Shown here piece after piece: positions 2,675-27,637 of a stretch of DNA of 32,000 nucleotides. Below the pieces are notes generated by a model. The model did no database searches, was not told the origin of the DNA, and saw nothing but the letters and a program-made list of their open reading frames with translations. Source of the stretch: Candidatus Saccharimonadota bacterium (lineage in GTDB: Bacteria > Patescibacteriota > Microgenomatia > UBA1406 > GWC2-37-13). How positions within the stretch are numbered: position 1 is the first letter of the stretch; each line of letters starts with the position of its first letter. Location: NCBI GenBank assembly GCA_016432445.1, contig CP066689.1, positions 1,050,001 through 1,082,000 of the forward strand, given 5' to 3'. Position numbers and translations under genes: made by a program.

Positions 2675-5262
2675 GTTACTATGAAATTTAGGATTTTGCC
2701 TTTTACGTAGATTGTTTTGTAGGATTTTCCTTCCACGAATTTTTTGACTTTATTATCTTCCAAGGCTTTTTTGACTACACTTTCTTCTTGTTCTTCACGG
2801 TTTATAACCACTGTGCCTCTTACCTTGCCGTTAACCTGAACCGGTATGGTTATCTCCTCTTCCTCAACCATCTTTTCAGCTTCAGGCCAAGGAGATAAGT
2901 GAATTGAAGACTTTTCCCCAAATATATCTCTCCAAATTTCCTCTGCTGTAAAAGGTGCAAACGGAGCCAATATCTTCAAAAACTTCTTGACCTCTTCTTG
3001 AGACATTCCTTCTGACTTTTCCCAGTCATTGATAAACTCCATCATTGAGGCAATAGCTGTATTAAACTTAATATTCAAGATATCGTTTGTTACCTTATGT
3101 ACTGTTTTGTTTAATTTTTGATTTAATTGTAGGGACAGGTCGCGACCTGTCCCTACCTTAGTTTGACACAAATTCCACACGCGGTTTAAAAACCGGTATC
3201 CCCCTTGTAAAGTTGAGGTCGACCAGGAAATCTCCTGACTAAACGGAGCCATAAACATTTCATAGATTCTTAAGGTGTCAGCCCCATACTCTTTCACTAC
3301 TTCATCGGGATTTATGACATTGCCAAGAGATTTACTCATCTTACGATGATCTTCAGCTAAAACCATACCGACATTTCTTAGGCGTAAAAAAGGTTCGCTG
3401 AAATCAACTAGCTTCAGATCATAAAGAGCTTTAACCCAGAAACGGGAGTATAGAAGGTGAAGAACAGCGTGTTCTGCTCCGCCGACATACCAATCCACCG
3501 GCTGCCACTTTTTCATTGACTCCTGACTCCAGGCTTCTTTATCATTATGAGGATCAGCAAATCTCAAAAAGTACCAGCAGGAACCGGCCCAGTTGGGCAT
3601 AGTATCCGTTTCCCGTTTACCTTCACCTCCGCAGTGAGGACAAGTGGTTTTAACCCAGTCTTTGACAGCAGACAAAGGCGACTCGCCGGTTTGAGATGGC
3701 TCGTAAGACTTAAGGTAAGGTAACTCTAACGGTAAACTTTTTTCATCAATTGGGAACCATCCATAAAGCGATTCTTGAACTTCTTTGTCTAGTTTTGATA
3801 CACTATGATCCCTCATTTGACATTTGACATTTGAAATTTGAAATTCTTCTGTGTCCCACCAAGAAATCTTCTTATCAGCACATTTTTGGCAATAAACCAT
3901 AGGGATTGGTTCGCCCCAATATCTTTGTCTTGAAAAAATCCAATCTCTTAAGTGATAACTAACGGTTCGTTGCCCCCATTTTTTTTCTTCCAGATAATCC
4001 ATGATCTTCTGTTTTGCTACCTGAATGTCTAGTCCATTTAAAAACTCGGAATTAATCATTCTACCAACCTCTTCTTGTACTTGCTTGCTTTCGGTTATTG
4101 CTGAAGTATCACCGTCTTTACCAACAACAACTCTAACTATTTCTAAACCAAATTCGCGGGCAAACTCGAAATCACGCAAATCATGTCCTGGTACTCCAAC
4201 TACTGCACCCGTTCCAAAATTGGAAAGAACAAAATCAGAGACCCAAATTGGCAAAAGTTTATTATTTAAGTTGTTGACAGCATAGTAGCCTGTAAAAACT
4301 CCCGTCTTTTTCTTTCCTTCAGCTATTCTTTCCAAATCCGTCTTAGAGACTGTTCTATCAACGTATTCTTTAATCTTAGTACTATACTCACGTGGAGTAT
4401 TTTCATCCTTTAATACCTTTTTAACAAACTCATGCTCTGGAGCTAAGACAACAAAAGTTGCTCCGAAATTAGTATCAGGTCTTGTCGTAAAACAGGTAAT
4501 TTCATCAAAGATCTTAGATCTTAGATCTTGGATCTTAGATTCAGGGCAAACTACTTTGTAGGTAATATTTATACCTTCTTTGCGGCCAATCCAGTTTTTT
4601 TGCATATCCAAAATTCCTTTTGGCCAATCTAAATCATCTAATCCTTCAAGTAAACGATCGGCATAAGAGGTGATTTTAAATATCCATTGAGGCAATTCTT
4701 TTTTTGTAATTGGACAACCGCACCTTTCATGGATGCCATTGGCTAAAACTTCCTCTTCGGCCAAGCCGGTTTTACATTTTTCGCAATAATATACTTCCGT
4801 ATTTTTTTTGTAAAGCAATCCTAGCTTGTAAAATTGAATAAATAACCATTGAGTCCATTTGTAGTAAGAAGGATCAGTGGTGGAAAACTCGCGGGACCAA
4901 TCAAAGGATAATCCAAGAGCCTTCATCTGTCGCTTAAAATTGGCAATATTGTCAGGCACCATATCCATAGGGTTTTTCTTGGCTTTAATGGCCGCGTTCT
5001 CTGCCGGCAGTCCAAAAGCATCCCAACCCATAGGATGAAGAACAGAATAACCTTTCATACGGTAGTAACGGGAAAGTATATCTGTAGCAGTGTAACCTCG
5101 AGGGTGACCAACATGAAGACCTGCACCTGAAGGGTAGGGAAACATATCTAATATATATGTTTTTTGTTTATTCTTGGATGGCTCCGCGGTGGCATAAGTA
5201 TTTTCTTTATCCCATACTTCAATCAGTTTGGGTTCAAACTGAGAAGGCTGATACTTTTTCAT
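2671..5262 (-). CDS. leuS: leucyl-tRNA synthetase
   Basis: Class I motifs are present: HVGHPRGY (HIGH) and KMSKSLGN (KMSKS). It also has TTRPDT at the editing-domain entry and a Cys-rich zinc motif. The start is set at MKKYQPSQFEP (ATG 5262). The 24 extra upstream codons in the ORF track are read from a 9-nt repeat array. Confidence 0.95.
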   Translation of the reverse strand: MKKYQPSQFEPKLIEVWDKENTYATAEPSKNKQKTYILDMFPYPSGAGLHVGHPRGYTATDILSRYYRMKGYSVLHPMGWDAFGLPAENAAIKAKKNPMDMVPDNIANFKRQMKALGLSFDWSREFSTTDPSYYKWTQWLFIQFYKLGLLYKKNTEVYYCEKCKTGLAEEEVLANGIHERCGCPITKKELPQWIFKITSYADRLLEGLDDLDWPKGILDMQKNWIGRKEGINITYKVVCPESKIQDLRSKIFDEITCFTTRPDTNFGATFVVLAPEHEFVKKVLKDENTPREYSTKIKEYVDRTVSKTDLERIAEGKKKTGVFTGYYAVNNLNNKLLPIWVSDFVLSNFGTGAVVGVPGHDLRDFEFAREFGLEIVRVVVGKDGDTSAITESKQVQEEVGRMINSEFLNGLDIQVAKQKIMDYLEEKKWGQRTVSYHLRDWIFSRQRYWGEPIPMVYCQKCADKKISWWDTEEFQISNVKCQMRDHSVSKLDKEVQESLYGWFPIDEKSLPLELPYLKSYEPSQTGESPLSAVKDWVKTTCPHCGGEGKRETDTMPNWAGSCWYFLRFADPHNDKEAWSQESMKKWQPVDWYVGGAEHAVLHLLYSRFWVKALYDLKLVDFSEPFLRLRNVGMVLAEDHRKMSKSLGNVINPDEVVKEYGADTLRIYEMFMAPFSQEISWSTSTLQGGYRFLNRVWNLCQTKVGTGRDLSLQLNQKLNKTVHKVTNDILNIKFNTAIASMMEFINDWEKSEGMSQEEVKKFLKILAPFAPFTAEEIWRDIFGEKSSIHLSPWPEAEKMVEEEEITIPVQVNGKVRGTVVINREEQEESVVKKALEDNKVKKFVEGKSYKTIYVKGKILNFIVT
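3129..3156. repeat. PAL28: perfect 28-nt palindrome GTAGGGACAGGTCGCGACCTGTCCCTAC, in frame in leuS
   Basis: Identical to the copies at 10851 and 27239. It is translated as VGTGRDLSL in the anticodon-binding region of LeuRS. Confidence 0.95.
3814..3846 (-). repeat. HEP-A heptamer array (AAATGTC/AAATTTC)n, in frame in leuS
   Basis: The plus strand reads CATTTGACATTTGACATTTGAAATTTGAAATTC. The sense strand encodes FQISNVKCQM. Confidence 0.9.
4508..4542 (-). repeat. HEP-C heptamer array (AAGATCT)n, in frame in leuS
   Basis: The plus strand reads AAGATCTTAGATCTTAGATCTTGGATCTTAGATTC. The sense strand encodes SKIQDLRSKI. Confidence 0.9.
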
Positions 5263-5269
5263 ATCTGAT

Positions 5270-5275
5270 ATTATA
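5270..5275 (-). promoter_or_regulatory. -10 box TATAAT, 7 nt upstream of the leuS ATG
   Basis: The minus strand reads TATAAT-ATCAGAT-ATG. No Shine-Dalgarno sequence is present. Confidence 0.4.
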
Positions 5276-5315
5276 TAACAATTATAATAATTATAAAGAT
5301 TATAACGGTTATATA
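5270..5315. repeat. NON-E 9-nt array (TTATAANNN)n upstream of leuS
   Basis: TTATA recurs at 9-nt spacing and includes the palindrome TATAACGGTTATA (5301-5313). The first unit doubles as the leuS -10 box. Confidence 0.75.
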
Positions 5316-5596
5316 TTTTCTCTTCTGTCTTCAAAGGAATTTCTTGGTTTAGGCGGTCTGGCTTCAGAAACGACTAACTTCCGGCCTTCATATTCTTGAC
5401 CGTTAAATTTATCAATAGCCGCTTTTGCTTCCTCCTCTGATGACATTTCAACGAATCCAAAACCTTTTGATCTACCACTGTCTCTATAGCGGATAACTGA
5501 TGCAGAAACAACATTACCAACCTGAGAAAAAAGATCTTTTAACTGATCATCATTAACCTCATATAAAAGATTACCAACATAAAGCTTAGCACTCAC
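5309..5596 (-). CDS. RRM-type RNA-binding protein
   Basis: RNP2 LYVGNL and RNP1 KGFGFVEM are present. It has a GTG start preceded by GGAGGTGG with a 7-nt spacer, the clearest Shine-Dalgarno in the window. Confidence 0.85.
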   Translation of the reverse strand: MSAKLYVGNLLYEVNDDQLKDLFSQVGNVVSASVIRYRDSGRSKGFGFVEMSSEEEAKAAIDKFNGQEYEGRKLVVSEARPPKPRNSFEDRRENI

Positions 5597-5695
5597 TAAT
5601 TACCACCTCCTTCCATTTGAAAAAACGAAAATTCAACGTAAAAAACAAAAATAATTAACAATTTAATTTTACAAGTTTTTACAAGGAAAAACAAG

Positions 5696-6736
5696 TTACC
5701 GACCAAGTCCCATCAATCTTTTAATTTCTTTAATCTTTTGGCTTGATTTCTCAAGGGAAAAATCCCGTCCTTCATTTAAGACTTTATTCAAATAACCTTC
5801 ATCTTTTTTTATTACTTGATACTTTTCCTGAATTTTTTTAAGAGATCCCACCACAACTTCGGCTAAATCGGATTTAAACTGACCATAGCCTATTCCTTGG
5901 TATTGTTTCTCAATTTCTTCAACCGGTTTTCCCGACAGACGTGAATAAATCACTAAAAGGTTTGAGATGGCAGGTTTATCTTCTTTAAAAACCACCTCAG
6001 AACCTGAGTCAGTCACAGCTTTCTTAATTTTTTCTCTTATCTCATCAGGAGTATTCAAAATATTAATTGTTCCTAAAGGATCTTTATCCGACTTACTCAT
6101 TTTGCTTAAAGGATTTTGCAGACTCATAATCCGCGCCGCATCCCGATCAACTCTGGTCTCAGGAAGTACAAAGATCTCACCAAACTGCTTATTAAACTTT
6201 TCAGCAATATCCCGGGTTAACTCTACATGCTGTCTTTGATCTTCTCCTACCGGCACTACATTAGTATCATAGAGAAGAATATCAGCAGCCATAAGCGCTG
6301 GATAGTTAAAAAGGCCGACAGGCCCTTCAAACAAAGCCCGGGCTTCAGCCAATGAAGAAAGATTATCAGCCTTTATAAATTTTTGTGCTTTTTCTTTAAA
6401 CTGGGTCATCCGAAAGAGCTGTCCCATATTTAAAAAACAATCAAAAATCCAGGCCAGATACGTATGATCTGGGTTTTCAGATTGAATAAAAAGTTTTGAT
6501 TTATTAGGATCAATTCCTCCTGCCAAATATAGAGCAGACAACTCAAGATTTTTTTCTCTTAATACCTTTGGATCCTGAAAAACAGTAATGGCATGAAGAT
6601 CAACCACACAAAATATTAAATCACTAAACTCTCCGCTTTCCTGAAGATTAACAGATTGACGAATCATCCCGATATAATTACCGACGTGAAGATCACCTGA
6701 TGGCTGAATACCGGAAAATATAGTTTTTTTTACCAT
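5696..6736 (-). CDS. trpS: tryptophanyl-tRNA synthetase
   Basis: IQPSGDLHVGNYIG (HIGH-type) and KMSKSD (KMSKS) are present. The ATG at 6736 lies 5 nt after the tyrS stop. The ORF-track start at 6754 is a TTG inside tyrS. Confidence 0.9.
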   Translation of the reverse strand: MVKKTIFSGIQPSGDLHVGNYIGMIRQSVNLQESGEFSDLIFCVVDLHAITVFQDPKVLREKNLELSALYLAGGIDPNKSKLFIQSENPDHTYLAWIFDCFLNMGQLFRMTQFKEKAQKFIKADNLSSLAEARALFEGPVGLFNYPALMAADILLYDTNVVPVGEDQRQHVELTRDIAEKFNKQFGEIFVLPETRVDRDAARIMSLQNPLSKMSKSDKDPLGTINILNTPDEIREKIKKAVTDSGSEVVFKEDKPAISNLLVIYSRLSGKPVEEIEKQYQGIGYGQFKSDLAEVVVGSLKKIQEKYQVIKKDEGYLNKVLNEGRDFSLEKSSQKIKEIKRLMGLGR

Positions 6737-6740
6737 AAGT

Positions 6741-7958
6741 TTAAACAATTTCAACTATTCCATAATCTTTTTTTCCCTTACGGATTAAAAAGTATTTATT
6801 GAATAAATTATTGCTAATTACTCCTTTTTGTTCAATTAATCTTCTTGCTTCATTTTTCGATTGCACCAATCCAAGCTGAATTAAAACCTCTTCTAACACC
6901 AAATCGTTTTGGGAAGATAAGGTTGTGTAAGGCACTGATTTTTTAATAAATTTTAAGTCTTTTTCTGTCAATCCTTCTCCTTTTCTTTCAAAAAGAATAC
7001 TAGCCACAGCTTTAGACTGATCGGCTAATTCCCGTCCGTGCACCATTTCGGTTAATTCGTACGCCAGTTCTTTTTGTATCAAACGTGTTTCTTTTTGCTT
7101 CTGCCATTCACCAATCAATTCTTCTATTTCTTCTTTCGATTTAAAAGAATAGTATTTCATTAGTACTGGAGCCAGCTCATCTTCAACATTGATAAAAAAT
7201 TGATAAAAAGCAAAAGGAGGAGTTTTTTCAGGATCAAGCCAAATAGCAGCTCCTTTTTCTGTCTTACCAAATTTTTTACCTGTTTTAGGATCAACAATTA
7301 AAGGATAAGATAAAACATGAGCCTCACGGCTTATTTTTTTTCTAATAAGTTCAACCCCTTGAATCATATTTCCCCATTGATCAGACCCCCCTATCTGCAC
7401 CTCACATTGATGATCCTCATAAAAACGTAAAAAATCATATGCTTGTAAAAGCTGATAAGAAAACTCTGCATATGATATTCCTTCCTGACGGGAAAGTCTT
7501 GTCTTTACAGATTCCATATCCATCATTGAGTTAGCTGAGATGTATTTACCGGTATCACGTAAAAAATCAATAAGAGATAATTTCTCCAGCCACTCGGCAT
7601 TATCTATTGTTTTAACTCTTTTACCGTCTATCTTAAAAAAATTTTCCACTTGCTTTGACAATTTTTCTTTATTGGCTGCCAATATGTCTTTGGAAACGAT
7701 TGGACGTTCGGCGTCTTTTCCTGACGGATCACCAATAGCGGCTGTACCCGTGGCCATAAGAACAATAATATTATGACCTGCTTCGTAAGCTCTTTTTAAA
7801 ACCAAATAACCTAAAAGATGTCCGAAATGAAGACTGTCGGCAGTAGCATCAACACCATAATAAATAGTTGCTCCTTTATTAAAAACATTTTCAATTCCAG
7901 GAGTTTTCTGGTAAATGAGTCCTCTCCATTCAAGATCGTTTAAAAAATTAATTTCCAT
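6741..7958 (-). CDS. tyrS: tyrosyl-tRNA synthetase
   Basis: YYGVDATADSLHFGHL (HIGH), KFGKT (KMSKS equivalent), and a C-terminal S4-like RNA-binding tail. TATAAT lies 8 nt upstream of the ATG. Confidence 0.9.
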   Translation of the reverse strand: MEINFLNDLEWRGLIYQKTPGIENVFNKGATIYYGVDATADSLHFGHLLGYLVLKRAYEAGHNIIVLMATGTAAIGDPSGKDAERPIVSKDILAANKEKLSKQVENFFKIDGKRVKTIDNAEWLEKLSLIDFLRDTGKYISANSMMDMESVKTRLSRQEGISYAEFSYQLLQAYDFLRFYEDHQCEVQIGGSDQWGNMIQGVELIRKKISREAHVLSYPLIVDPKTGKKFGKTEKGAAIWLDPEKTPPFAFYQFFINVEDELAPVLMKYYSFKSKEEIEELIGEWQKQKETRLIQKELAYELTEMVHGRELADQSKAVASILFERKGEGLTEKDLKFIKKSVPYTTLSSQNDLVLEEVLIQLGLVQSKNEARRLIEQKGVISNNLFNKYFLIRKGKKDYGIVEIV

Positions 7959-7966
7959 AGTTCTCT

Positions 7967-7972
7967 ATTATA
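7967..7972 (-). promoter_or_regulatory. -10 box TATAAT, 8 nt upstream of the tyrS ATG
   Basis: The minus strand reads TGTATAAT-AGAGAACT-ATG. Confidence 0.4.
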
Positions 7973-7983
7973 CATAAAGTTTT

Positions 7984-9048: not shown

Positions 9049-9053
9049 AAAAT

Positions 9054-9068
9054 GGATTTTGGATTTTT
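9054..9068. repeat. HEP-A-type mini array GGATTTTGGATTTTT
   Basis: Two units lie directly upstream of the ATG of ORF 7984-9048 on the minus strand. Confidence 0.5.
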
Positions 9069-9144
9069 ATTGATATAACTATAACAAAATTTATAAGATA
9101 ACAACAGTAAATATTAAAAAAATCTCCTACTAAATTAATTGCAA

Positions 9145-9173
9145 TTGACTTTATTAAAAATAATGTATACTAA
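9145..9173 (+). promoter_or_regulatory. candidate tkt promoter TTGACT-17-TACTAA
   Basis: Consensus-like -35 at 9145-9150 and an AT-rich -10 region. The ATG at 9186 would leave a leader of only a few nt. Confidence 0.35.
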
Positions 9174-9185
9174 ATATCTAAATAT

Positions 9186-11150
9186 ATGAACTCGAAGATT
9201 AAAGACCTCTGCAAACTGCTTCGATATGATGTTATAACCTCAACCACTGCCGCCGGTTCTGGACACCCTACAACCTGTCTTTCCGCTATAGAACTCATGG
9301 GAACATTATTTTTTAAAGGCTTTTTCCATTTTGATCCTGACCATCATGAAAGTATTCTTAACGACCGTATTATTTTTTCTAAAGGCCATGCTGCTCCCCT
9401 ACTTTATGCGTTATACCATGCAGCTGGATTAATAAGCCAAGATGATATTTTAAGTTTGCGTAAATTTGACTCTGTTTTTGAAGGACATCCTACTCCGAGA
9501 TTTAAGTACGTTGATGTTTCCACTGGTTCTCTAGGTCAAGGATTGTCAATAGGCGTGGGAATGGCATTAGGAATAAAAACCAAAATCCAAATGTCAAATG
9601 TCAAAATTAAAAGAGAACCTAAGGTATGGGTATTGATAGGAGACTCAGAAATAGCTGAAGGACAGGTTTGGGAAGCTATGGAAATAGCCTCACATTACAA
9701 ACTTAACAATCTGGTTGCCATACTTGATGTTAACCGTTTAGGTCAAAGAGGAGAAACAATGCTTGGATGGGATCTTAAAACTTATGAAAAACGAGCTCAA
9801 GCTTTTGGCTGGGAAACAATTGTTATCAAAGACGGCCATGATATTGAGGAAATAAAAAACGCATATCATCATGTCGACGAACGCCCAACGACGAACGCAA
9901 AACCCACAATGATCATCGCAAAAACCATAAAAGGCAAAGGCGTTTCCTTTCTTGAAAACAAAGATAACTGGCACGGTAAACCAGTACCTAAGGATAGATT
10001 AGAGGAAGCTTTAAAAGAATTGAGTAAAGTTAACCTTAAGGTAAGAGGAACAGTAACCAAACCAAAATTAGTTAAGGGTTTAGAGTTAAGGGTTTTGGGT
10101 AAAACTCAAAACTCTCAACCCTCAACCATAAACTATAAACCTGGAGCAATGGTTGCCACCCGTGAAGCTTATGGCGATGCTCTTGTTACATTAGGAGAAA
10201 AAAATCCCAACTTAGTAGTACTTGACGCTGAAACCTCAAACTCAACCTACGCTGATAAATTTAAAAATAATTTTCCTGAAAGATACTTTGAGATGTATAT
10301 TGCCGAACAAAATATGATCTCAGTCGCTTTAGGATTTTCTAAATTAGGATTTATTCCTTTTATCTCCAGTTTTGCCGCTTTTTTAACCCGATCTTTTGAT
10401 CAAATACGTATGGCTCAATACTCAAACGGCAATGTAAAAATATGCGGATCACATGCTGGGGTATCAATTGGCTCAGATGGTCCTTCGCAAATGGCATTGG
10501 AAGATATATCAATGATGAGAAGCATACTAGAAAGCACTGTTTTTTACCCATCAGATGCTGTTTCCGCTTATAATCTGGTTTATCAAAGTATGAGTACATC
10601 TTCTCTTACTTACATCCGCACCACTCGGGAAAAAACGCCCATTTTATATAGCTCTCAAGAAAAGTTTACTGTTGGTGGATCAAAAATTTTAAAACAAAGC
10701 AAAAATGATGATGCGGTTATTTTTACTGCCGGAATCACAGTCCATGAATCTCTTAAAGCTTACGAGGAACTAAAAAAAGAAGGAATTAATGTTTGCGTTG
10801 TTGATCTTTACTCCATCAAACCAATTGATTCGTTAACCATCCACAATCTAGTAGGGACAGGTCGCGACCTGTCCCTACCTAAAATCAATAACGTCATTGT
10901 TGTTGAGGATCATTACCCATATGGTGGCCTCGGCGAAGCCGTAATGTCGCAGATCAAAGATCTAACATCGAAGATCTCCTTCACTCACCTGGCTGTCAAT
11001 AAAATCCCCCGTTCAGGCACACCCGAAGAACTTTTAGCCTACGAAAAAATTAATGCCGCTGCTATCGTTAAAATATGTAAGGGCGTATTGCAATACGCCC
11101 CTACCTCACTCAAAAAAACCGTAACGGCAAAGGAACAACTTACCGCTTAA
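9186..11150 (+). CDS. tkt: transketolase, N- and C-terminal halves fused
   Basis: The N half has GSGHPTTCLS, GDSEIAEGQVWEA and WHGKP. The C half has ATREAYGDAL, EQNMISVA and HAGVSIGSDGPSQ. It contains six repeat-derived in-frame segments (see repeats). Its 3' end overlaps the convergent ATPase by 11 nt. Confidence 0.9.
   Translation: MNSKIKDLCKLLRYDVITSTTAAGSGHPTTCLSAIELMGTLFFKGFFHFDPDHHESILNDRIIFSKGHAAPLLYALYHAAGLISQDDILSLRKFDSVFEGHPTPRFKYVDVSTGSLGQGLSIGVGMALGIKTKIQMSNVKIKREPKVWVLIGDSEIAEGQVWEAMEIASHYKLNNLVAILDVNRLGQRGETMLGWDLKTYEKRAQAFGWETIVIKDGHDIEEIKNAYHHVDERPTTNAKPTMIIAKTIKGKGVSFLENKDNWHGKPVPKDRLEEALKELSKVNLKVRGTVTKPKLVKGLELRVLGKTQNSQPSTINYKPGAMVATREAYGDALVTLGEKNPNLVVLDAETSNSTYADKFKNNFPERYFEMYIAEQNMISVALGFSKLGFIPFISSFAAFLTRSFDQIRMAQYSNGNVKICGSHAGVSIGSDGPSQMALEDISMMRSILESTVFYPSDAVSAYNLVYQSMSTSSLTYIRTTREKTPILYSSQEKFTVGGSKILKQSKNDDAVIFTAGITVHESLKAYEELKKEGINVCVVDLYSIKPIDSLTIHNLVGTGRDLSLPKINNVIVVEDHYPYGGLGEAVMSQIKDLTSKISFTHLAVNKIPRSGTPEELLAYEKINAAAIVKICKGVLQYAPTSLKKTVTAKEQLTA
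9581..9608 (+). repeat. HEP-A heptamer array, in frame in tkt
   Basis: CAAAATCCAAATGTCAAATGTCAAAATT encodes KIQMSNVKI. Confidence 0.9.
9875..9903 (+). repeat. HEP-F heptamer array (CGACGAA/CGCNNAA)n, in frame in tkt
   Basis: The units CGACGAA CGCCCAA CGACGAA CGCAAAA encode DERPTTNAK. Confidence 0.8.
10071..10140 (+). repeat. HEP-H inverted heptamer arrays (GTTNNGG)x4 / (NNNNAAC)x6, encoding the linker between the transketolase halves
   Basis: The units are GTTAAGG GTTTAGA GTTAAGG GTTTTGG GTAAAAC TCAAAAC TCTCAAC CCTCAAC CATAAAC TATAAAC. They are translated as VKGLELRVLGKTQNSQPSTINY. Confidence 0.8.
10851..10878. repeat. PAL28 perfect copy, in frame in tkt
   Basis: The same 28-mer, translated as VGTGRDLSL. 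Confidence 0.95.
10950..10978 (+). repeat. HEP-C degenerate array, in frame in tkt
   Basis: CAGATCAAAGATCTAACATCGAAGATCTC encodes QIKDLTSKI, to be compared with KIQDLRSKI in LeuRS. Confidence 0.7.
11077..11104. repeat. PAL28 variant GTAAGGGCGTATTGCAATACGCCCCTAC at the 3' end of tkt
   Basis: Same length and same GTA.GG/CC.TAC ends as the perfect copies. The core differs but is perfectly self-complementary (GGGCGTATTG/CAATACGCCC). Translated as KGVLQYAP. Confidence 0.8.
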
Positions 11151-16550: not shown

Positions 16551-16615
16551 ATTGATTCACGATTTATGATTAATGATTCATGAATCGTGAATCTTGAATC
16601 ATTAATCAATGATCA
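16551..16615. repeat. HEP-D related array (ATGATTC/GTGAATC/TTGAATC units) in the secE / 16635 divergent spacer
   Basis: ATTGATTCACGATTTATGATTAATGATTCATGAATCGTGAATCTTGAATCATTAATCAATGATC is built from the same unit vocabulary as HEP-D. Confidence 0.75.
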
Positions 16616-16634: not shown

Positions 16635-17258
16635 ATGTATACAGAAATACTGCATTCAATCCTTATCACCGCTGCGCTGGCTCTCTCCTTTCTGATAAGC
16701 AAAACCTCTTTGGCAGTCTATGATTTACAAATAAGCGCCTTCCTTTTTATTGTCTTTTTTATAGGAAAAAAGTGGCTGGATAAAGGTCAGCATAAACTAA
16801 TAGAGTCGCTTGTTTTTGCTTTTATTATCAACATGATTGTCAGCACAACAGGAGCGGCTCAATCGCCTTATTTTTTCCTTTATTATTTTCTTTTGTTCTC
16901 ATTAAGTCTTTTTTTGGAACCCGTTATTGCCATTACAGCCACTATTGCTGTAATTTTCTTCTCTCTATTGTCTTTATCTCAGATACAAACTCTCGACCAG
17001 GTCTTGCCAATTTTATCGCTTGCCTTAATTACGCCATTTGCTCTTTTTTTGGGAGAAGAACATATCAAAAACCAAATTTCAAATGTCAAATTACAAAATT
17101 TGGAAAAAGACAGTTACTTTTTTCTTTCTTTAGTATTAAAAAATCACATCAATAATATTAACCAAGCGGCAGAAAATTTTTTAGGCGACCGCGAGCTTGA
17201 AGAAATCAAAAAAAATGTCAAAAGAATCAAGAAATTGATTGAAGAATATGAGAAATAG
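16635..17258 (+). CDS. polytopic membrane protein, function unknown
   Basis: About five hydrophobic helices followed by a charged C-terminal coil. A heptamer insertion encodes ISNVKLQ at the TM/coil boundary. TATACT lies 7 nt upstream of the ATG. Confidence 0.5.
   Translation: MYTEILHSILITAALALSFLISKTSLAVYDLQISAFLFIVFFIGKKWLDKGQHKLIESLVFAFIINMIVSTTGAAQSPYFFLYYFLLFSLSLFLEPVIAITATIAVIFFSLLSLSQIQTLDQVLPILSLALITPFALFLGEEHIKNQISNVKLQNLEKDSYFFLSLVLKNHINNINQAAENFLGDRELEEIKKNVKRIKKLIEEYEK
17072..17103 (+). repeat. HEP-A array, in frame in the membrane ORF 16635-17258
   Basis: CCAAATTTCAAATGTCAAATTACAAAATTTGG encodes QISNVKLQNL. Confidence 0.85.
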
Positions 17259-21521: not shown

Positions 21522-21538
21522 AATTTGACATTTGGATT
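21465..21538. repeat. HEP-A hairpin at the convergent junction comEC-MBL / PaaX-like
   Basis: CAAATGTCAAAT (21478-21489) pairs perfectly with ATTTGACATTTG (21523-21534). It supplies the last codons of the MBL ORF (QSTNVKSFRFWISFEI). Confidence 0.85.
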
Positions 21539-22356
21539 TAGGAGAGAAGGATACTCTTTATCTCTCTAAATATATTGTACGCTTCAAGGCCTATCCATTT
21601 TTCGCCCACCAGATCTATTGGCAGACCGGGATCCTCACGTAAGATAATCACGTACTCGCCAATAACTTTCTTAAATTTGTCTGTTTTACTGCCTTCCTTT
21701 GCCAACGTATCATGCCATTTCTTAAAAAGATCTCTGTATCTCTTATCCAGTTGTGACAATCCCCAAACCTTCTCAATCAAAATTGCACGATCGCCAAAAA
21801 CATATTCGGCTTCAAAAGCCTGTACGTATTTTTCTTCCTCTTTTTGAGATACTAGCTCTTTAAGTGCGTCAATGATCGGATGAGGCGTTAGCCAAAAAGA
21901 TCTGTGCCAAGGACCCAAGCCCCAACCTGAGACTTCGCGTCGAAGTTTATCTCGTAGTTCTCTCTTTTTTTCCGGAATTTCATAAGACAAAATACGCCAT
22001 TTTCCATCCCACTTTTCTTTTAAAAATCTCACGAACGGAAACTCAAGAGCAAGTTTAATAAACCCCTTCTCAGTCAAACGGTATTCAGCTGCATTGTCAT
22101 CCCGACCGGAGTGGAGGCTATAGTCCTGAGCTTGCGAAGGAGATCCCTCGGCTTCACTCGGGATGACATTGGAGGAATAGTTTTTCTCAATCAATCCTTC
22201 TTTTAATAATGCTGAAAGAGTACCGCGGGTTTTTTGGTTTAAAGATAAATCAAAAGCAAGCTGTATGGGCTCTTGCAATTTGACATATGGAAAATTAACG
22301 TCTGATAGTAAAAATAGAGCAAGTAAAATTTTCGTCCGTCTTTCTTTGATTATCAT
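21538..22356 (-). CDS. PaaX-like transcriptional regulator
   Basis: An N-terminal winged-helix-like segment (TRGTLSALLKEGLIE) plus WDGKWRILSYEIPEKKRELRDKLRREVSGWGLGPWHRSFWLTPHP, which is typical of the PaaX C-terminal region. A 72-nt GC-rich element is inserted in frame between the two parts. Confidence 0.6.
   Translation of the reverse strand: MIIKERRTKILLALFLLSDVNFPYVKLQEPIQLAFDLSLNQKTRGTLSALLKEGLIEKNYSSNVIPSEAEGSPSQAQDYSLHSGRDDNAAEYRLTEKGFIKLALEFPFVRFLKEKWDGKWRILSYEIPEKKRELRDKLRREVSGWGLGPWHRSFWLTPHPIIDALKELVSQKEEEKYVQAFEAEYVFGDRAILIEKVWGLSQLDKRYRDLFKKWHDTLAKEGSKTDKFKKVIGEYVIILREDPGLPIDLVGEKWIGLEAYNIFREIKSILLS
22096..22167. repeat. GC-rich 72-nt element with perfect 10-bp terminal inverted repeats GTCATCCCGA/TCGGGATGAC, in frame in the PaaX-like gene
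   Basis: The length is exactly 24 codons, translated as VIPSEAEGSPSQAQDYSLHSGRDD. The GC content contrasts sharply with the host gene. Confidence 0.85.
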
Positions 22357-22365
22357 TTAGGAAAA

Positions 22366-22394
22366 AGAATAACAGACGGAATTTTTACTGTCAA
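22366..22394 (-). promoter_or_regulatory. promoter TTGACA-17-TATTCT, 9 nt upstream of the PaaX-like ATG
   Basis: The minus strand reads TTGACA-GTAAAAATTCCGTCTGT-TATTCT-TTTTCCTAA-ATG. Confidence 0.45.
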
Positions 22395-22411
22395 GAGGAA
22401 TATAACTTTTG

Positions 22412-22433
22412 TAATTGATATATAATTGATATA
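22412..22433. promoter_or_regulatory. tandem 11-bp direct repeat TAATTGATATA x2, candidate operator in a divergent promoter region
   Basis: It is a perfect tandem duplication at one helical turn of spacing, followed by the palindrome TTGTACAA. It lies between the PaaX-like regulator and the surface-protein operon. Confidence 0.35.
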
Positions 22434-22463
22434 AAGGTTGTACAATTACTCATTGAATTGCCC

Positions 22464-22492
22464 TTGACAAAAAATGAAGAATACTCTTTAAT
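22464..22492 (+). promoter_or_regulatory. promoter TTGACA-17-TTTAAT for the surface operon at 22518
   Basis: Consensus -35 with 17-nt spacing. The ATG lies 25 nt downstream of the -10. Confidence 0.45.
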
Positions 22493-22517
22493 TTAGTTTA
22501 TCATTAATTTTTCATTC

Positions 22518-23987
22518 ATGAGAAAAAAACATCTCTGCTCTAAGATTATTCTTTTAGTGATATTTGTTTCTGTCTTTAGCGTTTTCTTCTTCACCAAACC
22601 AAAAAAAGTAGATACTGCAAATTTTACCAATTCTTATGCTCTTTTAAGTAACTCACGACTTTCCTACCGCGCTGGTGTTGGCAATACTACTGCTTCAGGC
22701 GATACCTTTATAACTATTGACTCTTCTGGAAATCCTGACAATAACACTAATCATTTGTTCCCTGGAGATACAGTTTGTTTTGAAGATACTTCTTTAAGCG
22801 CTCCCTGTAGAGAAAGCCGATCAGTTGCAAATATAATCAGCACTACGAGTTTCAATACCTCAACTGGCGCCACTGTGGCTTTGGCCGCCACTGACCTGGT
22901 GATTGTTAAACAGACTGGAAGCCTCACCATAAATTTTTTTACTGCCTCAGAAGTACCTGTTGGCGGAGATCTTTTGGTTACTGTACCGGCCGTAAATTCA
23001 ACCGCTACTAATGATACTTATCCAGATAGTGCCTCAACTGTGGCTGTTAATGGTTTTGATTTAAACGGAGTAGCTGCTGGTGACGTCTCAATTTCAGGTG
23101 GTTGTACCCCTGCTAACTGGGGCAGTGCCACAGTTACAGCCGGAGACGCCAGCAACGACCACACTATCAGATTTGATCGAGTAACGACAGCTTGTTCAGC
23201 ATCAATAGGTATCACTATAACTATTGATGCCTCCCCTGGTTTGCTTAACCCGGCTCCAATAACGTCCGGACATACTCAAGGCGGAGCTGATGTTTACACA
23301 ATAAATGTCAAAAGCCGTGATTCAAGCGACGCCACTATTGATCAAATTGATATTAAAGTAGCGCCGGTTGAGGCTGTATTTGTTTCAGCCACTGTTGATG
23401 AGTCACTGGCTTTTACTATAGCTTCTGTAGGGGTGGGCACAACTGTTTGCGGTCAAGTCGCTGATGTCGCCACTACTGCTATGACTGTACCGTGGGGTAC
23501 TATTTCTACGGCTAACACATTTTCTGAAGCGGCTCAACAGCTGACTGTCTCAACCAACGCAGATGGCGGCTATATCGTGAGAATTGAAGAAAATGACCAG
23601 ATGGGTAAAGATGGGGTAGCCTGTAGTGGCGCTTCGGCTGATGAATCAGTCAACTGTATTAAAGATACTCTCTGCGGCAGTAGCAACTGTTCAGAAAGTA
23701 CTTCTCAAGACTGGACTGATGCCTCAACCTATCAAGGATTAGGCTACTCTATTGAGAATGTCGACGGCACTGATGGCGCTTTTACTTATAGTGAATCTTC
23801 ACGGACATTCTCATCTAGACAATTAGCTGATCAAGAAGCTAGTGAAACTAAAGCTACTATTATGTCCAGTGCCACCCCTGTAAACTCAAAAGATATTTAC
23901 GTCTGCTACCGTATTGCCGTATCAGCTACTCAACCAGCCGGATATTATTATAATAAAGTTAAGTACACAGCCACAGCCACATTTTAA
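22518..23987 (+). CDS. secreted beta-rich surface protein (large paralog of 17278-18033)
   Basis: It has a signal/TM N-terminus, a Thr/Ser/Ala/Val-rich beta-type composition, a Cys-rich loop (CSGASADESVNCIKDTLCGSSNCSES) and a terminal QPAGYYYNKVKYTATATF. It is driven by TTGACA-17-TTTAAT. Confidence 0.55.
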   Translation: MRKKHLCSKIILLVIFVSVFSVFFFTKPKKVDTANFTNSYALLSNSRLSYRAGVGNTTASGDTFITIDSSGNPDNNTNHLFPGDTVCFEDTSLSAPCRESRSVANIISTTSFNTSTGATVALAATDLVIVKQTGSLTINFFTASEVPVGGDLLVTVPAVNSTATNDTYPDSASTVAVNGFDLNGVAAGDVSISGGCTPANWGSATVTAGDASNDHTIRFDRVTTACSASIGITITIDASPGLLNPAPITSGHTQGGADVYTINVKSRDSSDATIDQIDIKVAPVEAVFVSATVDESLAFTIASVGVGTTVCGQVADVATTAMTVPWGTISTANTFSEAAQQLTVSTNADGGYIVRIEENDQMGKDGVACSGASADESVNCIKDTLCGSSNCSESTSQDWTDASTYQGLGYSIENVDGTDGAFTYSESSRTFSSRQLADQEASETKATIMSSATPVNSKDIYVCYRIAVSATQPAGYYYNKVKYTATATF

Positions 23988-23993
23988 TAAATT

Positions 23994-25001
23994 ATGAGAA
24001 ATATAATTAATCTAATTTTTATAATAGTTATAACCTTTATAACTGTTATACAGGCGACTGAAGCGAAGGCTCAAGCTACTCAAATGCTTCAGGTTGCCCC
24101 AGCGCGCCAGGAAATTACTTTAAACCCGGGTGAACAGGCCTCAATAGTAGTAAAATTTTATAATTTTAACGAAACTCCTGTCGCAGGCATTGTTAAGGTT
24201 GCTGACTTTGAAGTCACTGATTCTGACGGCACAGTCAGGATTATTGATACGGCCTCACAGGCTTCACCAAAGTTCTCTGCTTCTCAATGGTTTACTATTG
24301 CCAATGAAAAAGTCATCATTTTCCCTCAAGATAAAGTTACAGTTCAGGCGCAAATAAATGTCTCTACTGATGCTCGCCCAGGAGGAAGGTATGCGGCCGT
24401 ATATTTTGAACCCGCAGAATCTGTATCTCAGCCTGTAAACATTGGTAAAAGTGCCTCAACAGGCATTGCCTCAAGAATCGCCTCACTTATCTATATCAGA
24501 GTTCCTGGAGATACTTTTGAAAAAGCCCTAATTTCACGTTTTTTTGCTTCTTCTTTTCTTGAAAATGGACCTATTAATGTTGAGACTGAGATTCTAAACC
24601 GCGGTGATTACCACATTAGGCCAAAAGGATTTGTCAGCCTAACTGATATGTTTAGCAATGTTCAGGCTCAGGAAAAAATTAAAGAGCATAATATCTTTCC
24701 TGATGCCTCAAGAACCTATAAAAACTCTCTCGGTTCCAAATGGATGCTTGGACGCTATCGACTTGATCTTACTTCCTCTTACGGAGACAAAGCTCAGGTC
24801 ATGACCCGCTTTATTTATGTCTGGGTCTTCCCTTGGAAAATAGCCTTAGCTATAGTTTTGGCTCTCATACTGTTTATAGTCTTTGGAAAAAATATTTATA
24901 AAAAAATAGTTGTTAAAGAAGCTGTCCTTGAAGCCGAGGTTAAAAAAGAAAAAGAAGAGATAGAAGAACTGAAAAAAGAGTTGCGTAAAAAAAATGACTA
25001 A
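23994..25001 (+). CDS. signal-anchored Ig-like/chaperone-like protein (DUF916-like), paralog of 18036-19028
   Basis: The signal peptide is nearly identical to that of the paralog (IQATEAKAQ). Also present: APARQEITLNPGEQ, RPGGRYAAVYF, and a C-terminal TM followed by a K/E-rich coil. Confidence 0.5.
   Translation: MRNIINLIFIIVITFITVIQATEAKAQATQMLQVAPARQEITLNPGEQASIVVKFYNFNETPVAGIVKVADFEVTDSDGTVRIIDTASQASPKFSASQWFTIANEKVIIFPQDKVTVQAQINVSTDARPGGRYAAVYFEPAESVSQPVNIGKSASTGIASRIASLIYIRVPGDTFEKALISRFFASSFLENGPINVETEILNRGDYHIRPKGFVSLTDMFSNVQAQEKIKEHNIFPDASRTYKNSLGSKWMLGRYRLDLTSSYGDKAQVMTRFIYVWVFPWKIALAIVLALILFIVFGKNIYKKIVVKEAVLEAEVKKEKEEIEELKKELRKKND
24021..24052 (+). repeat. NON-E 9-nt array encoding a signal-peptide core
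   Basis: ATAATAGTTATAACCTTTATAACTGTTATACA is translated as IIVITFITVIQ. Confidence 0.8.
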
Positions 25002-25923
25002 TAGTCTTACTCTAATCCTTCTAATCCCCTTAATCCTCCTACTCCCTTTCCCAATATCTGCTGCGTTGCCTCCTCAATCTTCGACTATTCAAGTCTCCGT
25101 CTCAATTGGAGAATACCAGTTCACGCTTTATGGACAGACTTCACCTAGTGCTTTAGTCTCAATTCAGGGTATGGGTATATATGATCAAACCACAGCTGAC
25201 AATGATGGTAATTTTGTGTTTGTAAACCGTTTCTCCCCTTTTTCGCCGCGTGAAGCTTGTATAACTGCTCAGGATCAGTTTGGCAGAAACTCAGCCCCGA
25301 CCTGTCTTCCCCCTTTCCCAACCCGCTACAACGTCACTGTTGGACCGGTTCTTATGCCGGCCACTCTTTCTCTTGATAAAAACGACTATTTTTTGGGTGA
25401 TGAGATAGTTTTGAGCGGACAAACTATCCCCAACAGCGAGGTTAATCTTTCTATGTTTGCTGCAGATACATCTTTATCAAAATATCTGGCATTAACCCCG
25501 ATTGGATCAAAATCAATTTTAAAACGGGAAATCGTCAAATCTGCCCCTGCAATTAAGCTACCTGAGTATAAAACTAAGTCTGATGACAAAGGCAACTTTT
25601 CTATTTCCTTACCGTCATCTAAAACTTCTGACTACCGTTTATTCACTCAGACTGCTGTAGGTAAAGATAAATCACCTAAAAGTATTATCTTAAATCCTTC
25701 AGTTTTACCTTGGTGGATGATTATCTTCAAGTATTTTCTTTTTATCTGGAATATAATACGGCCAAGACTGCTGGAAATTATAATTATTATTGAGATTGCG
25801 GCAACTACCTATTATATTTTCACTCATTATCTTCACCATAAAAAAATAAGAACGCTGATGGTGAGAGAAAAACATGAGATACAAATTACAAAATCCAAAT
25901 GTCAAATGACAAATATCAAATGA
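24994..25923 (+). CDS. secreted/anchored protein with two CarboxypepD_reg-like beta-sandwich repeats
   Basis: It overlaps the upstream stop by 8 nt. Two copies of the G-Q-T-x-P-x-x-x-V...D-x-x-G-N-F pattern are present, with a C-terminal TM. The last ~12 codons are read from heptamer repeats. Confidence 0.5.
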   Translation: MTNSLTLILLIPLILLLPFPISAALPPQSSTIQVSVSIGEYQFTLYGQTSPSALVSIQGMGIYDQTTADNDGNFVFVNRFSPFSPREACITAQDQFGRNSAPTCLPPFPTRYNVTVGPVLMPATLSLDKNDYFLGDEIVLSGQTIPNSEVNLSMFAADTSLSKYLALTPIGSKSILKREIVKSAPAIKLPEYKTKSDDKGNFSISLPSSKTSDYRLFTQTAVGKDKSPKSIILNPSVLPWWMIIFKYFLFIWNIIRPRLLEIIIIIEIAATTYYIFTHYLHHKKIRTLMVREKHEIQITKSKCQMTNIK

Positions 25924-25973
25924 ATGTTTGAATTTTTTTTGAAATTTGACATTTGGCATTTGAGCTTTGAATC
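25881..25973. repeat. HEP-A hairpin at the convergent junction 24994-25923 / 26020-26433
   Basis: CCAAATGTCAAAT (25895-25907) pairs perfectly with ATTTGACATTTGG (25944-25956), a 13-bp stem. The left arm encodes the tail KSKCQMTNIK. Confidence 0.85.
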
Positions 25974-26019
25974 TTAATATTGAGGCTTAACAGAGCCTTA
26001 AAGATTGAATTAACGTTCG

Positions 26020-26433
26020 TTAATTAAAGCTTACGTGTGCTTTTTGATTTAATGAAGTATCCTCTACTTTAACGCTAACATAATATTCTCCTGCTTGATT
26101 GGCAGTTACATCAAAAACTGATTTACCTAAGTTATCACTTAATCCCTGTATTGCTTCTATACTCAAATGAGGAACAGGCTCGAGAGTTACTTTCTTTCCC
26201 ATCACGCCCAATCCTTGATTGTTTAGTATGAAAACAGTGATACGTATCTTCTCTTGGCCATTGGCCTTGGCCTGTAAAGGACTGACAAAAATATAAGAAT
26301 TATCGGCTGAAAATGAATAACGGCTGACATCAGCCCGGCCAACCATATACTGAGTTTCATAAAACCAAAAGAAACCTGAGAAAGAAATAAGAACAACTAA
26401 AACCATTAATACATAAAAAAATTTCCTGTTCAT
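26020..26433 (-). CDS. membrane-anchored bacterial Ig-like domain protein
   Basis: N-terminal TM followed by a Big-like pattern (KIRITVFILNNQGLGVMGKKVTLEP...VTANQAGEYYVSVKV). I prefer the ATG at 26433 (TATATT 7 nt upstream) over the TTG at 26472. Confidence 0.5.
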   Translation of the reverse strand: MNRKFFYVLMVLVVLISFSGFFWFYETQYMVGRADVSRYSFSADNSYIFVSPLQAKANGQEKIRITVFILNNQGLGVMGKKVTLEPVPHLSIEAIQGLSDNLGKSVFDVTANQAGEYYVSVKVEDTSLNQKAHVSFN

Positions 26434-26690
26434 AATATTAAATATAACATATATTAAAAAAAACAAGGCCAATTGTCATTTAACGCTTCGGATTGATCTG
26501 ATCTGGAAACTTTGTGAAGTCGTCCCGACGTGGCGTCTTTACAGATGATTAAAACAAATTTTACATTTATCAAAATAAACATACGTCTGCTAAAAATTAA
26601 AAAAAAAGCTATAGCTTATTCCATAGACTTGAAACTTAATCAAGTTAACCTGGTGATAAATATTACTTGCAGACGTTAATTTTAAAATAA

Positions 26691-26796
26691 GAATTTCAAA
26701 TGTCAAATTTCAAATTCCAAATCAAATCCAAAATCCAAATAACTAAATTACTTAACCTTAGTTGATATTTGAAATTTGAGCTTTGACATTTGATTT
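26691..26796. repeat. HEP-A inverted arrays, longest intergenic copy
   Basis: The left arm has about eight CAAATNN units (TTTCAAATGTCAAATTTCAAATTCCAAATCAAATCCAAAATCCAAAT). The right arm reads GATATTTGAAATTTGAGCTTTGACATTTGA. Confidence 0.9.
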
Positions 26797-26848
26797 TTAT
26801 CTAAAATTTCTTGTGGCTAACCATGGAGGAAATCATACAAACGTGTAT

Positions 26849-26876
26849 GTAGGTAACGCAGATCTGCGTCCCTTAC
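26849..26876. repeat. PAL28 variant GTAGGTAACGCAGATCTGCGTCCCTTAC, intergenic
   Basis: 28 nt with 11 Watson-Crick pairs, 1 GU pair and 2 mismatches. It has the same terminal GTAGG...CCTTAC as the family. Confidence 0.7.
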
Positions 26877-27053
26877 GAATATCATATTATACGCCCAAAA
26901 TACTACAAGATACTTGATATCTTTCTATATATTAAGGACATTGAAATAATTTCACGTTAAATAAAATAAATACAATTAAATTATTTTATAGGCCTTATAG
27001 TGCCAGCTCCCGAATCTGTAAATAACTATATCACAATACTACCAAAATACCTC

Positions 27054-27083
27054 TTGACAACCTTTTTATAATTGTAATAGTAT
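27054..27083 (+). promoter_or_regulatory. promoter TTGACA-18-TAGTAT, 8 nt upstream of the ATG at 27092
   Basis: TTGACA at 27054-27059 and TAGTAT at 27078-27083. Confidence 0.4.
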
Positions 27084-27091
27084 GAGAGTGT

Positions 27092-27637
27092 ATGCAACTA
27101 CAGTATAATCAGTATAATTTTGAATCTTCTTTTAAAAACTATTTACTTGCGGAAAAAGTAAAACCTGTTACTTTAAAAAATTATCTGTCCGATTTAAGAC
27201 ATTTTTTGGGGTGGTTAACAATCCCATCTCACATCAATGTAGGGACAGGTCGCGACCTGTCCCTACCAGATGAAACGTCATTCATCACCCAAAATCTGAC
27301 CTTAGAAACCCTTGAAAATTACAAGCAGTATCTTATATCAAACAACCTGCCTTTACTAACTGTAAACCGCCGCCTCTCTACTCTTCGTAAGTTTTGCACC
27401 TTTTGTATTTCTCAAGGATGGATGAAGGAGAACCCAGCGAAAAAAATTTCAAATGTCAAATTTCAAATGTCAAGTGCAGGGGTCGGGCGTGACCGACCCG
27501 AGACAATGGATGAGGCAAATATCGGATATGTATTAAAAAAATATAAAACATTCATTGAAAAAGAAGGCCTTTCCAACAATCAAATCGATAAAAATATTAC
27601 AGACGTGAAGGATTTTTTACAAATTATAAATTCATAA
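27092..27637 (+). CDS. tyrosine-recombinase N-terminal SAM-like (core-binding) domain protein, no catalytic domain
   Basis: FKNYLLAEKVKPVTLKNYLSDLRHFLGWL and NYKQYLISNNLPLLTVNRRLSTLRKFCTFCISQGWMKENPA fit the Phage_int_SAM pattern. There are no R..HxxR..Y catalytic residues. Three different repeat families are inserted in frame. Confidence 0.5.
   Translation: MQLQYNQYNFESSFKNYLLAEKVKPVTLKNYLSDLRHFLGWLTIPSHINVGTGRDLSLPDETSFITQNLTLETLENYKQYLISNNLPLLTVNRRLSTLRKFCTFCISQGWMKENPAKKISNVKFQMSSAGVGRDRPETMDEANIGYVLKKYKTFIEKEGLSNNQIDKNITDVKDFLQIINS
27239..27266. repeat. PAL28 perfect copy, in frame in the integrase-N-domain ORF
   Basis: The same 28-mer, translated as VGTGRDLSL. Confidence 0.95.
27445..27473 (+). 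repeat. HEP-A array, in frame in the integrase-N-domain ORF
   Basis: AAATTTCAAATGTCAAATTTCAAATGTCAA encodes ISNVKFQMS. Confidence 0.9.
27480..27499. repeat. GC hairpin GGGTCGG-GCGTGA-CCGACCC, in frame in the integrase-N-domain ORF
   Basis: A 7-bp perfect stem translated as GVGRDRP, in the same ORF as the VGTGRDLSL-encoding PAL28 copy. A single copy was seen. Confidence 0.5.

Follow-up and report, generated by a model that had tools for sequence, protein, structure and literature searches.

The 32,000-nt window analysed here, which belongs to contig CP066689.1 of a Candidatus Saccharimonadota bacterium, contains five 28-nt palindromes. These are very probably (with a probability of about 0.8) double-foot repetitive extragenic palindromes (REPs) of TnpA-REP subclass 2.4, which are associated with group 4 of the tyrosine transposases linked to REPs (RAYTs), which are Y1/HUH transposases of single-stranded DNA (ssDNA). 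Three of the palindromes are identical (REP-A) and the two others have different cores (REP-B and REP-C). REP-A and REP-B are each accompanied by a separate RAYT clade, in which the open reading frame (ORF) holds the same hairpin. The elements are classed as double-foot REPs because all tested defining features fit, while the definitions of classical REPs and bacterial interspersed mosaic elements (BIMEs), of Rickettsia palindromic elements (RPEs) and of CRISPR arrays fail and that of ordinary miniature inverted-repeat transposable elements (MITEs) probably does so too.

Palindromic elements of the window

The five palindromes had been listed in the initial annotation, and pattern matching found all of them at the same positions (Table 1). 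The 28-mer of REP-A occurs three times in the window, which has a G+C content of ~36%, and has no match in 100 dinucleotide-preserving shuffles. The pattern GTARGG-N16-CCYTAC adds REP-B and REP-C. The REP-B copy is one base off a widespread symmetric form (GTAGGGGCGTATTGCAATACGCCCCTAC). For REP-C two mismatches had been counted at first; its arms actually leave three positions unpaired. In total, 16 28-mers of the window have at least 11 of their 14 positions paired, compared to 2.3 in the shuffles, and only the five elements among them possess GTA...TAC feet.

The foot pairs are GTAG...CTAC in the three REP-A copies and GTAA...CTAC and GTAG...TTAC in the two others, as expected for double-foot REPs. 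The foot is followed by a GGG/CCC stem base in REP-A and REP-B, which have a 12-bp stem; in REP-C this base is partial. Folding as ssDNA gives -12.2 kcal/mol for REP-A (z = -6.8), -8.3 kcal/mol for REP-B (z = -3.6) and -5.4 kcal/mol for REP-C (z = -3.1). The palindromy of REP-A is continuous through the centre, which leaves no loop. All elements are solitary units, separated by 226 bp to 16 kb.

The presence of three identical REP-A copies within 32 kb points to a recent spread in this lineage. The REP-B copy, which has one mismatch, would be older or in decay, as would the degenerate REP-C copy; REP-C is probably a decayed member of the family. Three independent Logan assemblies of the locus (L001-L003; recovered contigs of at most 10 kb) contain these sequences too, and the elements are thus real and not an artefact of assembly. 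Scanning the window for Rfam families and for tRNAs produced no match.

RAYT genes linked to the palindromes

Exact copies of REP-A were searched in one genome per GTDB species, and 8-kb stretches around the matches were analysed. In 14-15 of ~120 such stretches (~12%), REP-A lies inside or directly beside a RAYT-like ORF. By a rough estimate, the chance of finding such a gene in a random 8-kb stretch is well below 1%. The initial annotation had related the hairpins to RAYT (TnpA-Y1) transposases and suggested a search for such a gene flanked by them. These 14-15 loci in other genomes provide it, and REP-A and REP-B are each linked with a RAYT clade of their own, often inside the gene.

The ORFs linked to REP-A (RAYT-A, ~150-220 aa) consist of MPNH[IV]HGI, which is the HUH motif, a variable linker, KIKSLSELMGAYKTT, WQRSFHDHIIR and YIxNNP. 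They match the NCBIfam family REP_Tyr_transpos with E-values of 1e-15 to 1e-17 and, weakly, Pfam Y1_Tnp, and can be aligned with the structure of E. coli TnpA-REP (PDB 4ER8) in the regions of the HUH and Tyr motifs. With the REP peptide taken out of the query, a database search gave 3452 homologues. Among the best 120 of these, 77 have peptides of the VGTGRD type in the linker behind the HUH motif, often as several degenerate tandem copies. Two other loops contain additional inserts in some homologues, whereas a few proteins lack inserts altogether. REP-A is found in or beside the RAYT in most of ~235 database homologues, and the RAYTs of Magasanikbacteria and other Patescibacteria have the same linker peptides, read in either frame.

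Tandem repeats of the left half of the hairpin, in units of 18 or 27 nt, were observed in or beside RAYT genes at three loci (L062 4380-4476, L034 250-317 and L078 ~1190-1410). They encode VGTGRD-VGTGRD..., VGTGRDAAS (three times) and DRDLSLRSPYT (three times). The RAYT linker is evidently expanded by slippage.

Ten of the stretches with REP-B encode a RAYT that is only 28-35% identical to RAYT-A. In eight of the nine extracted ORFs of this type (RAYT-B), the linker that holds the REP peptides of RAYT-A contains peptides of the REP-B type (CRGVLQYAPT, VGAYCNTPL or similar sequences); the ninth has a third palindrome (CRGTARRAPT). Since REP-B has a diverged RAYT clade of its own, different cores mark different enzyme/hairpin pairs. 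The covariation suspected in the initial annotation exists in this form, between families. Copies changed on both arms do exist (GTAGTGACAGG...CCTGTCACTAC and GTAGAGTCAGG...CCTGACTCTAC), but the different cores mainly represent different cognate REP families and not drift within a single one. The variants are also no unrelated chance palindromes, given the two RAYT-like clades; REP-C is included with less confidence.

Distribution of the copies

The family extends far beyond the five copies from which it had been proposed. Exact REP-A copies are present in at least 120 genome stretches of more than 12 phyla, and REP-B in at least 120 metagenome stretches, with 113 copies in the symmetric form. 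The hosts of REP-A include Patescibacteria (at least nine metagenome-assembled genomes, MAGs), many Bacteroidota, Nitrospinota, Fibrobacter, Spirochaetia, Gammaproteobacteria, Calditrichia, Ignavibacteria, Zixibacteria, Aminicenantes, Bacillota, Planctomycetales and sponge symbionts. They also comprise long-read chromosomes and isolates in culture (Segetibacter aerophilus, Pontibacter chitinilyticus, Xanthomarina). Because the exact string was used as the query, the identity among these matches is partly a matter of ascertainment. The flanks of the copies are unrelated, which identifies the 28-mer itself as the repeated unit. When only the inner 22-mer is considered, full GTA...TAC feet are found on all but 2 of 138 copies.

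At least 3 bp of additional flanking palindromy was counted for 18 of 126 REP-A and 10 of 109 REP-B copies, where ~2 are expected. These copies are placed exactly at the tips or centres of longer palindromes. The flanks also have a symmetric pyrimidine/purine (Y/R) bias.

At several loci of sponge-symbiont and Nitrospinota MAGs (L011, L016, L026, L043, L046, L047, L064, L066, L069 and L110), REP-A abuts a second repeat, CCGGAATGACGAACAAAACCGCACCGCCTC, which elsewhere precedes other GTAGGG palindromes. This suggests composite elements. Carriage by phages was considered as a route between phyla and rejected, with only four viral contigs containing REP-A. A literature search for the 28-mer sequence and its peptides found no paper.

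Host genes and reading frames

Four of the five elements of the window are located in frame in long ORFs and leave the host frames unbroken; REP-C alone is intergenic (Table 1). The three REP-A copies are all read in the frame GTA GGG ACA..., giving the peptide VGTGRDLSL. This peptide occupies residues 727-735 of leucyl-tRNA synthetase (LeuRS), in the linker ahead of the anticodon-binding domain, residues 556-564 of transketolase and residues 50-58 of the integrase-like ORF. Both the common frame and the stop in another frame, which opens as G-TAG-GG, had been recognized in the initial annotation; one of the three frames is closed in this way. REP-B is read in the other stop-free frame (..GT AAG GGC..) as CKGVLQYAPT, at residues 631-640 of transketolase. 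It lies at the 3' end of this gene, which faces a convergent gene.

Table 1. Palindromic elements of the window and the genes that contain them
Feature	Positions	Strand	Description	Location
REP-A copy 1	3129-3156		perfect 28-nt double-foot palindrome, GTAGGGACAGGTCGCGACCTGTCCCTAC	within LeuRS (- strand gene)
REP-A copy 2	10851-10878		GTAGGGACAGGTCGCGACCTGTCCCTAC, same as copy 1	within transketolase
REP-A copy 3	27239-27266		GTAGGGACAGGTCGCGACCTGTCCCTAC, same as copies 1 and 2	within integrase N-terminal (SAM-like) ORF
REP-B	11077-11104		GTAAGGGCGTATTGCAATACGCCCCTAC, 13/14 arm pairs	in frame, C-terminal tail of transketolase
REP-C	26849-26876		GTAGGTAACGCAGATCTGCGTCCCTTAC, degenerate, 11/14 pairs	AT-rich divergent intergenic region
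LeuRS	2671-5334	-	leucyl-tRNA synthetase, 887 aa	
Transketolase	9186-11150	+	654 aa; 100% identical to a Candidatus Roizmanbacteria MAG protein (1,103,789-bp contig)	
Integrase-N ORF	27092-27637	+	protein with phage-integrase SAM-like N-terminal domain, 181 aa	

Both stop-free frames are in use across all loci. REP-A copies in long ORFs are read in frame 1 or frame 3 at a ratio of 31:12, and the peptide of the second frame, RDRSRPVPT, occurs in 12 ORFs. Such intragenic copies make up 8 of 13 in genomes of the Candidate Phyla Radiation (CPR), compared to 35 of 118 elsewhere.

In the AlphaFold model of transketolase (mean pLDDT, the per-residue confidence score, of 88), the REP-A peptide forms a loop between a helix and a strand. 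The pLDDT of this loop is 74-78, versus 93-97 in its flanks, and REP-B is placed at the start of a disordered tail. The LeuRS linker is hypervariable, and whole extra domains are found there in other CPR LeuRS. As judged from the transketolase model, the positions are consistent with a survival of REP copies only at tolerant sites of proteins.

Further variation was seen in the same proteins. At the LeuRS linker (aligned at ~3100-3180), the homologues P0248 and P0265 carry inserts of 150-250 aa, and the listed homologues reach 1610 aa; the site accepts very large insertions. A second loop of transketolase (~10930-10960) has low-complexity inserts in the CPR proteins P0010, P0015, P0034, P0041, P0053, P0055 and P0056. 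These inserts, such as FQISNFK, NFQFSISNFQF and NCKLKIEN, resemble in-frame translations of both strands of a further AT-rich DNA repeat. The integrase-like ORF with REP-A comprises the N-terminal SAM-like domain alone and is followed by a separate ORF of 124 aa (27709-28083), so that the gene at 27092-28083 may be split or decayed.

Other features of the window are a brief repetition of the 7-nt unit AGATCTT within LeuRS (4504-4535, - strand gene; TCAAAGATCTTAGATCTTAGATCTTGGATCTTAGA), which was scored as a near-palindrome, and overlapping near-palindromes of TGAATC/GATTCA units (CGATTTATGATTAATGATTCATGAATCGTGAATCTTGAATCA) in the intergenic region at 16560-16601. The latter are upstream of the ORF at 16635-17258 and could be an operator-like repeat. 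The G+C content rises to 42-47% at 28750-32000, a region for which the ORF list has no entry; this is explained by one + strand ORF of more than 1090 codons that runs past the end of the window. No Rfam match was obtained there.

Net length of the insertion

Of the 59 closest homologues of the transketolase with REP-A, 58 are shorter by exactly eight residues. Removal of 24 nt from the gene leaves CTA GTA CCT AAA, a sequence that contains GTAC. When the junctions are placed at GT/A...CT/AC, one of several equivalent placements, the 3' cut falls after CT. A net gain of 24 nt rather than 28 is favoured by the intact ORFs, in which 28 nt would cause a frameshift, and by the eight additional residues. 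Tentatively, and with moderate strength, an insertion is thus proposed to add 24 nt within GTAC, or eight codons, so that the frame is never shifted.

The comparison of other host proteins gave mixed results, for which reason the 24-nt/GTAC rule stays a hypothesis. KBL/BioF is longer than the solved structures by a net ~8 or 9 residues, which fits the value of eight. The rule is not a general one. PyrB gains a net 7 to 11 residues over solved structures, and in AraA and YchF the REP-coded segment replaces native residues, with a net change of -5 to 0 and of 0, respectively. LeuRS provides no measure of net length, as its linker is hypervariable.

The search for empty sites adds to these difficulties, since an all-against-all blastn of 247 loci yielded no site at the DNA level that differs by the hairpin only. 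The one orthologous pair that it contained, L027/L084, differs in an intergenic region that has diverged and in a composite element of ~190 nt. This ~190-nt insertion includes REP-A in L084 and is absent from L027. For transketolase, the nearest homologue available for such a comparison is 70% identical. The repeats of sponge symbionts that adjoin REP-A (CCGGAATGACGAA...) were tried as a source of empty sites and rejected as too heterogeneous. In the whole window GTAC is under-represented, with 64 occurrences against ~108 expected from the base composition, which may have to do with the proposed GTAC target or with avoidance of restriction.

Comparison with known systems

TnpA-REP subclass 2.4 is equivalent to RAYT group 4 (Quentin et al. 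2018, PMC6006769; Bertels et al. 2017, PMC5581495). Enzymes of this subclass are described as ~194 aa long and as having the motifs NH[IFV]H, WQ and YIxNNP (PMC6006769). Their double-foot REPs combine a 5' GT[AG]G and a 3' C[TC]AC with a stem base of three G-C pairs. They are also found in frame inside the tnpA-REP gene, between the HuH and Tyr motifs, and the hosts are scattered over many phyla (PMC6006769). The feet, the three G-C pairs, the in-frame insertion, the motifs of the enzyme and the scattered phyla are all shared by the elements described here. In the passages considered from these papers, however, CPR/Patescibacteria are not among the hosts named. The copies in essential housekeeping genes and a loop-less perfect 28-mer that is identical in more than 12 phyla are likewise unlike the subclass as presented there. 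The CPR hosts, the insertions in essential genes and the tentative +24-nt GTAC rule go beyond the considered passages of the cited papers.

Intragenic GTAG REPs have been described by Di Nocera et al. 2013 (PMC3733652), for instance in Opitutus terrae, including tRNA synthetase genes. These are also GTAG-footed palindromes that lie wholly in ORFs and add a short peptide, with GTAG able to act as a TAG stop in one frame. They differ by their one unpaired GTAG at one end, by looped stems of 6-13 bp and by frequently occurring as dimers, whereas the elements of the window are loop-less single units with two paired feet. The characterised TnpA-REPs are reported to cut after CT on a folded single strand, guided by GTAG (PMC8266576).

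The classical REP/BIME-RAYT systems (the REPtron of E. coli and Pseudomonas; RAYT groups 2 and 3) have the hairpin, the GTAG guide and the Y1/HUH enzyme in common with the present elements. The single-strand cleavage after CT proposed below derives from them. However, they are extragenic (usually 3' of genes) and lineage-specific, occur as inverted pairs (BIME/REPIN) of imperfect, bulged or looped palindromes with a single GTAG foot, and are passed on mainly by vertical inheritance. Here, four of five copies are intragenic, REP-A is perfect and loop-less, and the units have two feet and are solitary. The IS200/IS605 elements encode an enzyme of the same superfamily (TnpA Y1), which recognizes hairpins on ssDNA and selects its cleavage site by a guide tetranucleotide. 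Their hairpins flank the transposase gene in an element of 0.7-2 kb, whereas the mobile unit here is the hairpin alone.

RPEs are ~100-150 bp long and devoid of GTAG feet, and no link between them and a RAYT is known. With a unit of 28 nt and flanks that are not conserved, the elements are set apart from RPEs by description. The initial annotation had called them REP- or RPE-like. The likeness to RPEs holds for the in-frame habit, since RPEs are described as palindromic repeats translated in frame in protein-coding genes (PMC3733652); it does not hold for length and structure. A CRISPR array was rejected because the copies are inside genes at the distances given above, whereas CRISPR spacers are regular and 25-50 nt long.

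Objections and alternative explanations

Several observations weigh against the assignment to subclass 2.4. The RAYT-A ORFs score under the curated cut-offs (58-64 versus 80 bits in NCBIfam, 17-20 versus 23 bits in Pfam), which is probably due in part to the REP insert that splits the domain. The window has no RAYT-like gene, in line with the initial annotation, and none on the 1,103,789-bp contig of this genome is among the 120 matches listed for the Segetibacter and Magasanikbacteria queries. RAYT activity in this genome is therefore unproven, and the copies of the window could be relics or depend on an enzyme encoded elsewhere. The core pattern of REP-C has no relatives in viral contigs. 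Finally, RAYT-driven REP transposition is not known to have been demonstrated in vivo for any family, and PMC8266576 describes the mechanism of dissemination as poorly understood.

A different type of mobile element would be a minimal MITE of a cut-and-paste DDE transposase. It would consist of 22 bp, formed by two abutting terminal inverted repeats (GGGACAGGTCG and CGACCTGTCCC), with insertion at TA and a TA duplication as in IS630/Tc1-mariner, which gives G-TA-(22 bp)-TA-C. The loop-less palindromy through the centre, the TA at both junctions and the symmetric Y/R preference of the flanks suit this structure, and 22 + 2 = 24 nt fits the eight additional residues of transketolase. No direct repeats are present outside the 28-mer at the copies, although a TA duplication could hide within the GTA...TAC feet. 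Such an origin is nevertheless improbable. The sole recurrently linked gene is a Y1/HUH RAYT, which itself contains the element, and no DDE transposase turned up beside the copies, no systematic search for one having been made. The nearly invariant feet of the 22-mers (all but 2 of 138) would moreover require a strict GTAC target, beyond TA, and PMC6006769 places this type of REP with RAYT subclass 2.4. It is equally hard to credit that the hairpins are domesticated and kept by selection for a cellular function, as terminators, mRNA stabilisers or protein-binding sites. REPs are described in such roles in other bacteria (PMC3733652 and PMC8266576), some copies in other genomes are at the tips of terminator-like hairpins, and REP-B faces a convergent gene from the 3' end of transketolase. 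But four of the five window copies are translated in frame within ORFs, where a terminator would harm, no T-run follows the copies of the window, and an identical 28-mer with unrelated flanks in more than 12 phyla fits spread better than local function.

Selection of the peptide VGTGRDLSL, with the palindrome as an incidental product, would explain the common frame of the three identical window copies and the overall preference for frame 1 (31:12). Both the use of two reading frames and the existence of non-coding copies contradict it: RDRSRPVPT is read in 12 ORFs and in many RAYTs, and most copies in non-CPR genomes are outside long ORFs. The copies are also identical at every synonymous position across phyla, and their hosts are unrelated proteins in which the segment is modelled as a low-confidence loop. 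This explanation has therefore hardly any probability left. Perfect palindromes can arise in amplified libraries, and an assembly chimera, an adapter or a contamination had to be considered as well. The recovery of the sequence in the same context from the NCBI MAG and from three independent Logan assemblies, the presence in chromosome-level long-read MAGs and cultured isolates, and ORFs that are intact across the element make an artefact next to inconceivable.

Proposed mechanism

For double-foot REPs of subclass 2.4, the RAYT would bind the folded hairpin on ssDNA, for example on the lagging-strand template. The GTAG foot would serve as a guide, and the enzyme would cleave next to it, at CCCT^AC, a site available on both strands. 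Indeed, both strands of REP-A read GTAG-stem-CCCT^AC, so that the guide and the CT cleavage site are built in. The hairpin would then be rejoined into exposed single-stranded targets; insertion into such exposed strands is proposed as the cause of the excess of copies at the tips of palindromes, and the symmetric Y/R bias of the flanks fits it as well. Each insertion would, tentatively, add the 24 nt within GTAC proposed above and keep the frame. In a gene-dense CPR genome, the survivors might then be the in-frame insertions in tolerant loops, linkers and tails, because the insertion is neutral for the frame and only one of its three frames has a stop.

A broader generalization, that subclass-2.4 REPs are frame-neutral, peptide-inserting hairpins that enter GTAC sites exposed as ssDNA, often at hairpin tips, add exactly 24 nt and colonise the coding sequences of streamlined and gene-dense CPR genomes, essential enzymes included, with enzyme and element moving together between phyla, is speculative and rather doubtful at this stage. 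Such joint movement would follow from the placement of the substrate hairpin within each RAYT's own ORF. It would account for finding one and the same 28-mer in groups from Patescibacteria to Gammaproteobacteria, although divergence has left the enzymes with only ~40-57% identity.

Implications

The little-studied RAYT/REP system of subclass 2.4 is extended here to the bacteria of the Candidate Phyla Radiation. The hairpins are written into LeuRS and transketolase, enzymes that reduced genomes presumably cannot lose. The peptides VGTGRDLSL, RDRSRPVPT, VGAYCNTPL and RGVLQYAPT can be recognized in metagenomic proteins as REP-encoded inserts, and they mark tolerant surface loops. REP inserts can also interrupt the assembly of short reads and mislead the scoring of homology; the RAYT itself falls below the Pfam and NCBIfam cut-offs, probably in part through its own insert. 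If the +24-nt/GTAC rule is true, it would give a simple account of a mobile element living in coding DNA, and would supply a testable target rule for the enzyme family, for which no reconstituted transposition is known.

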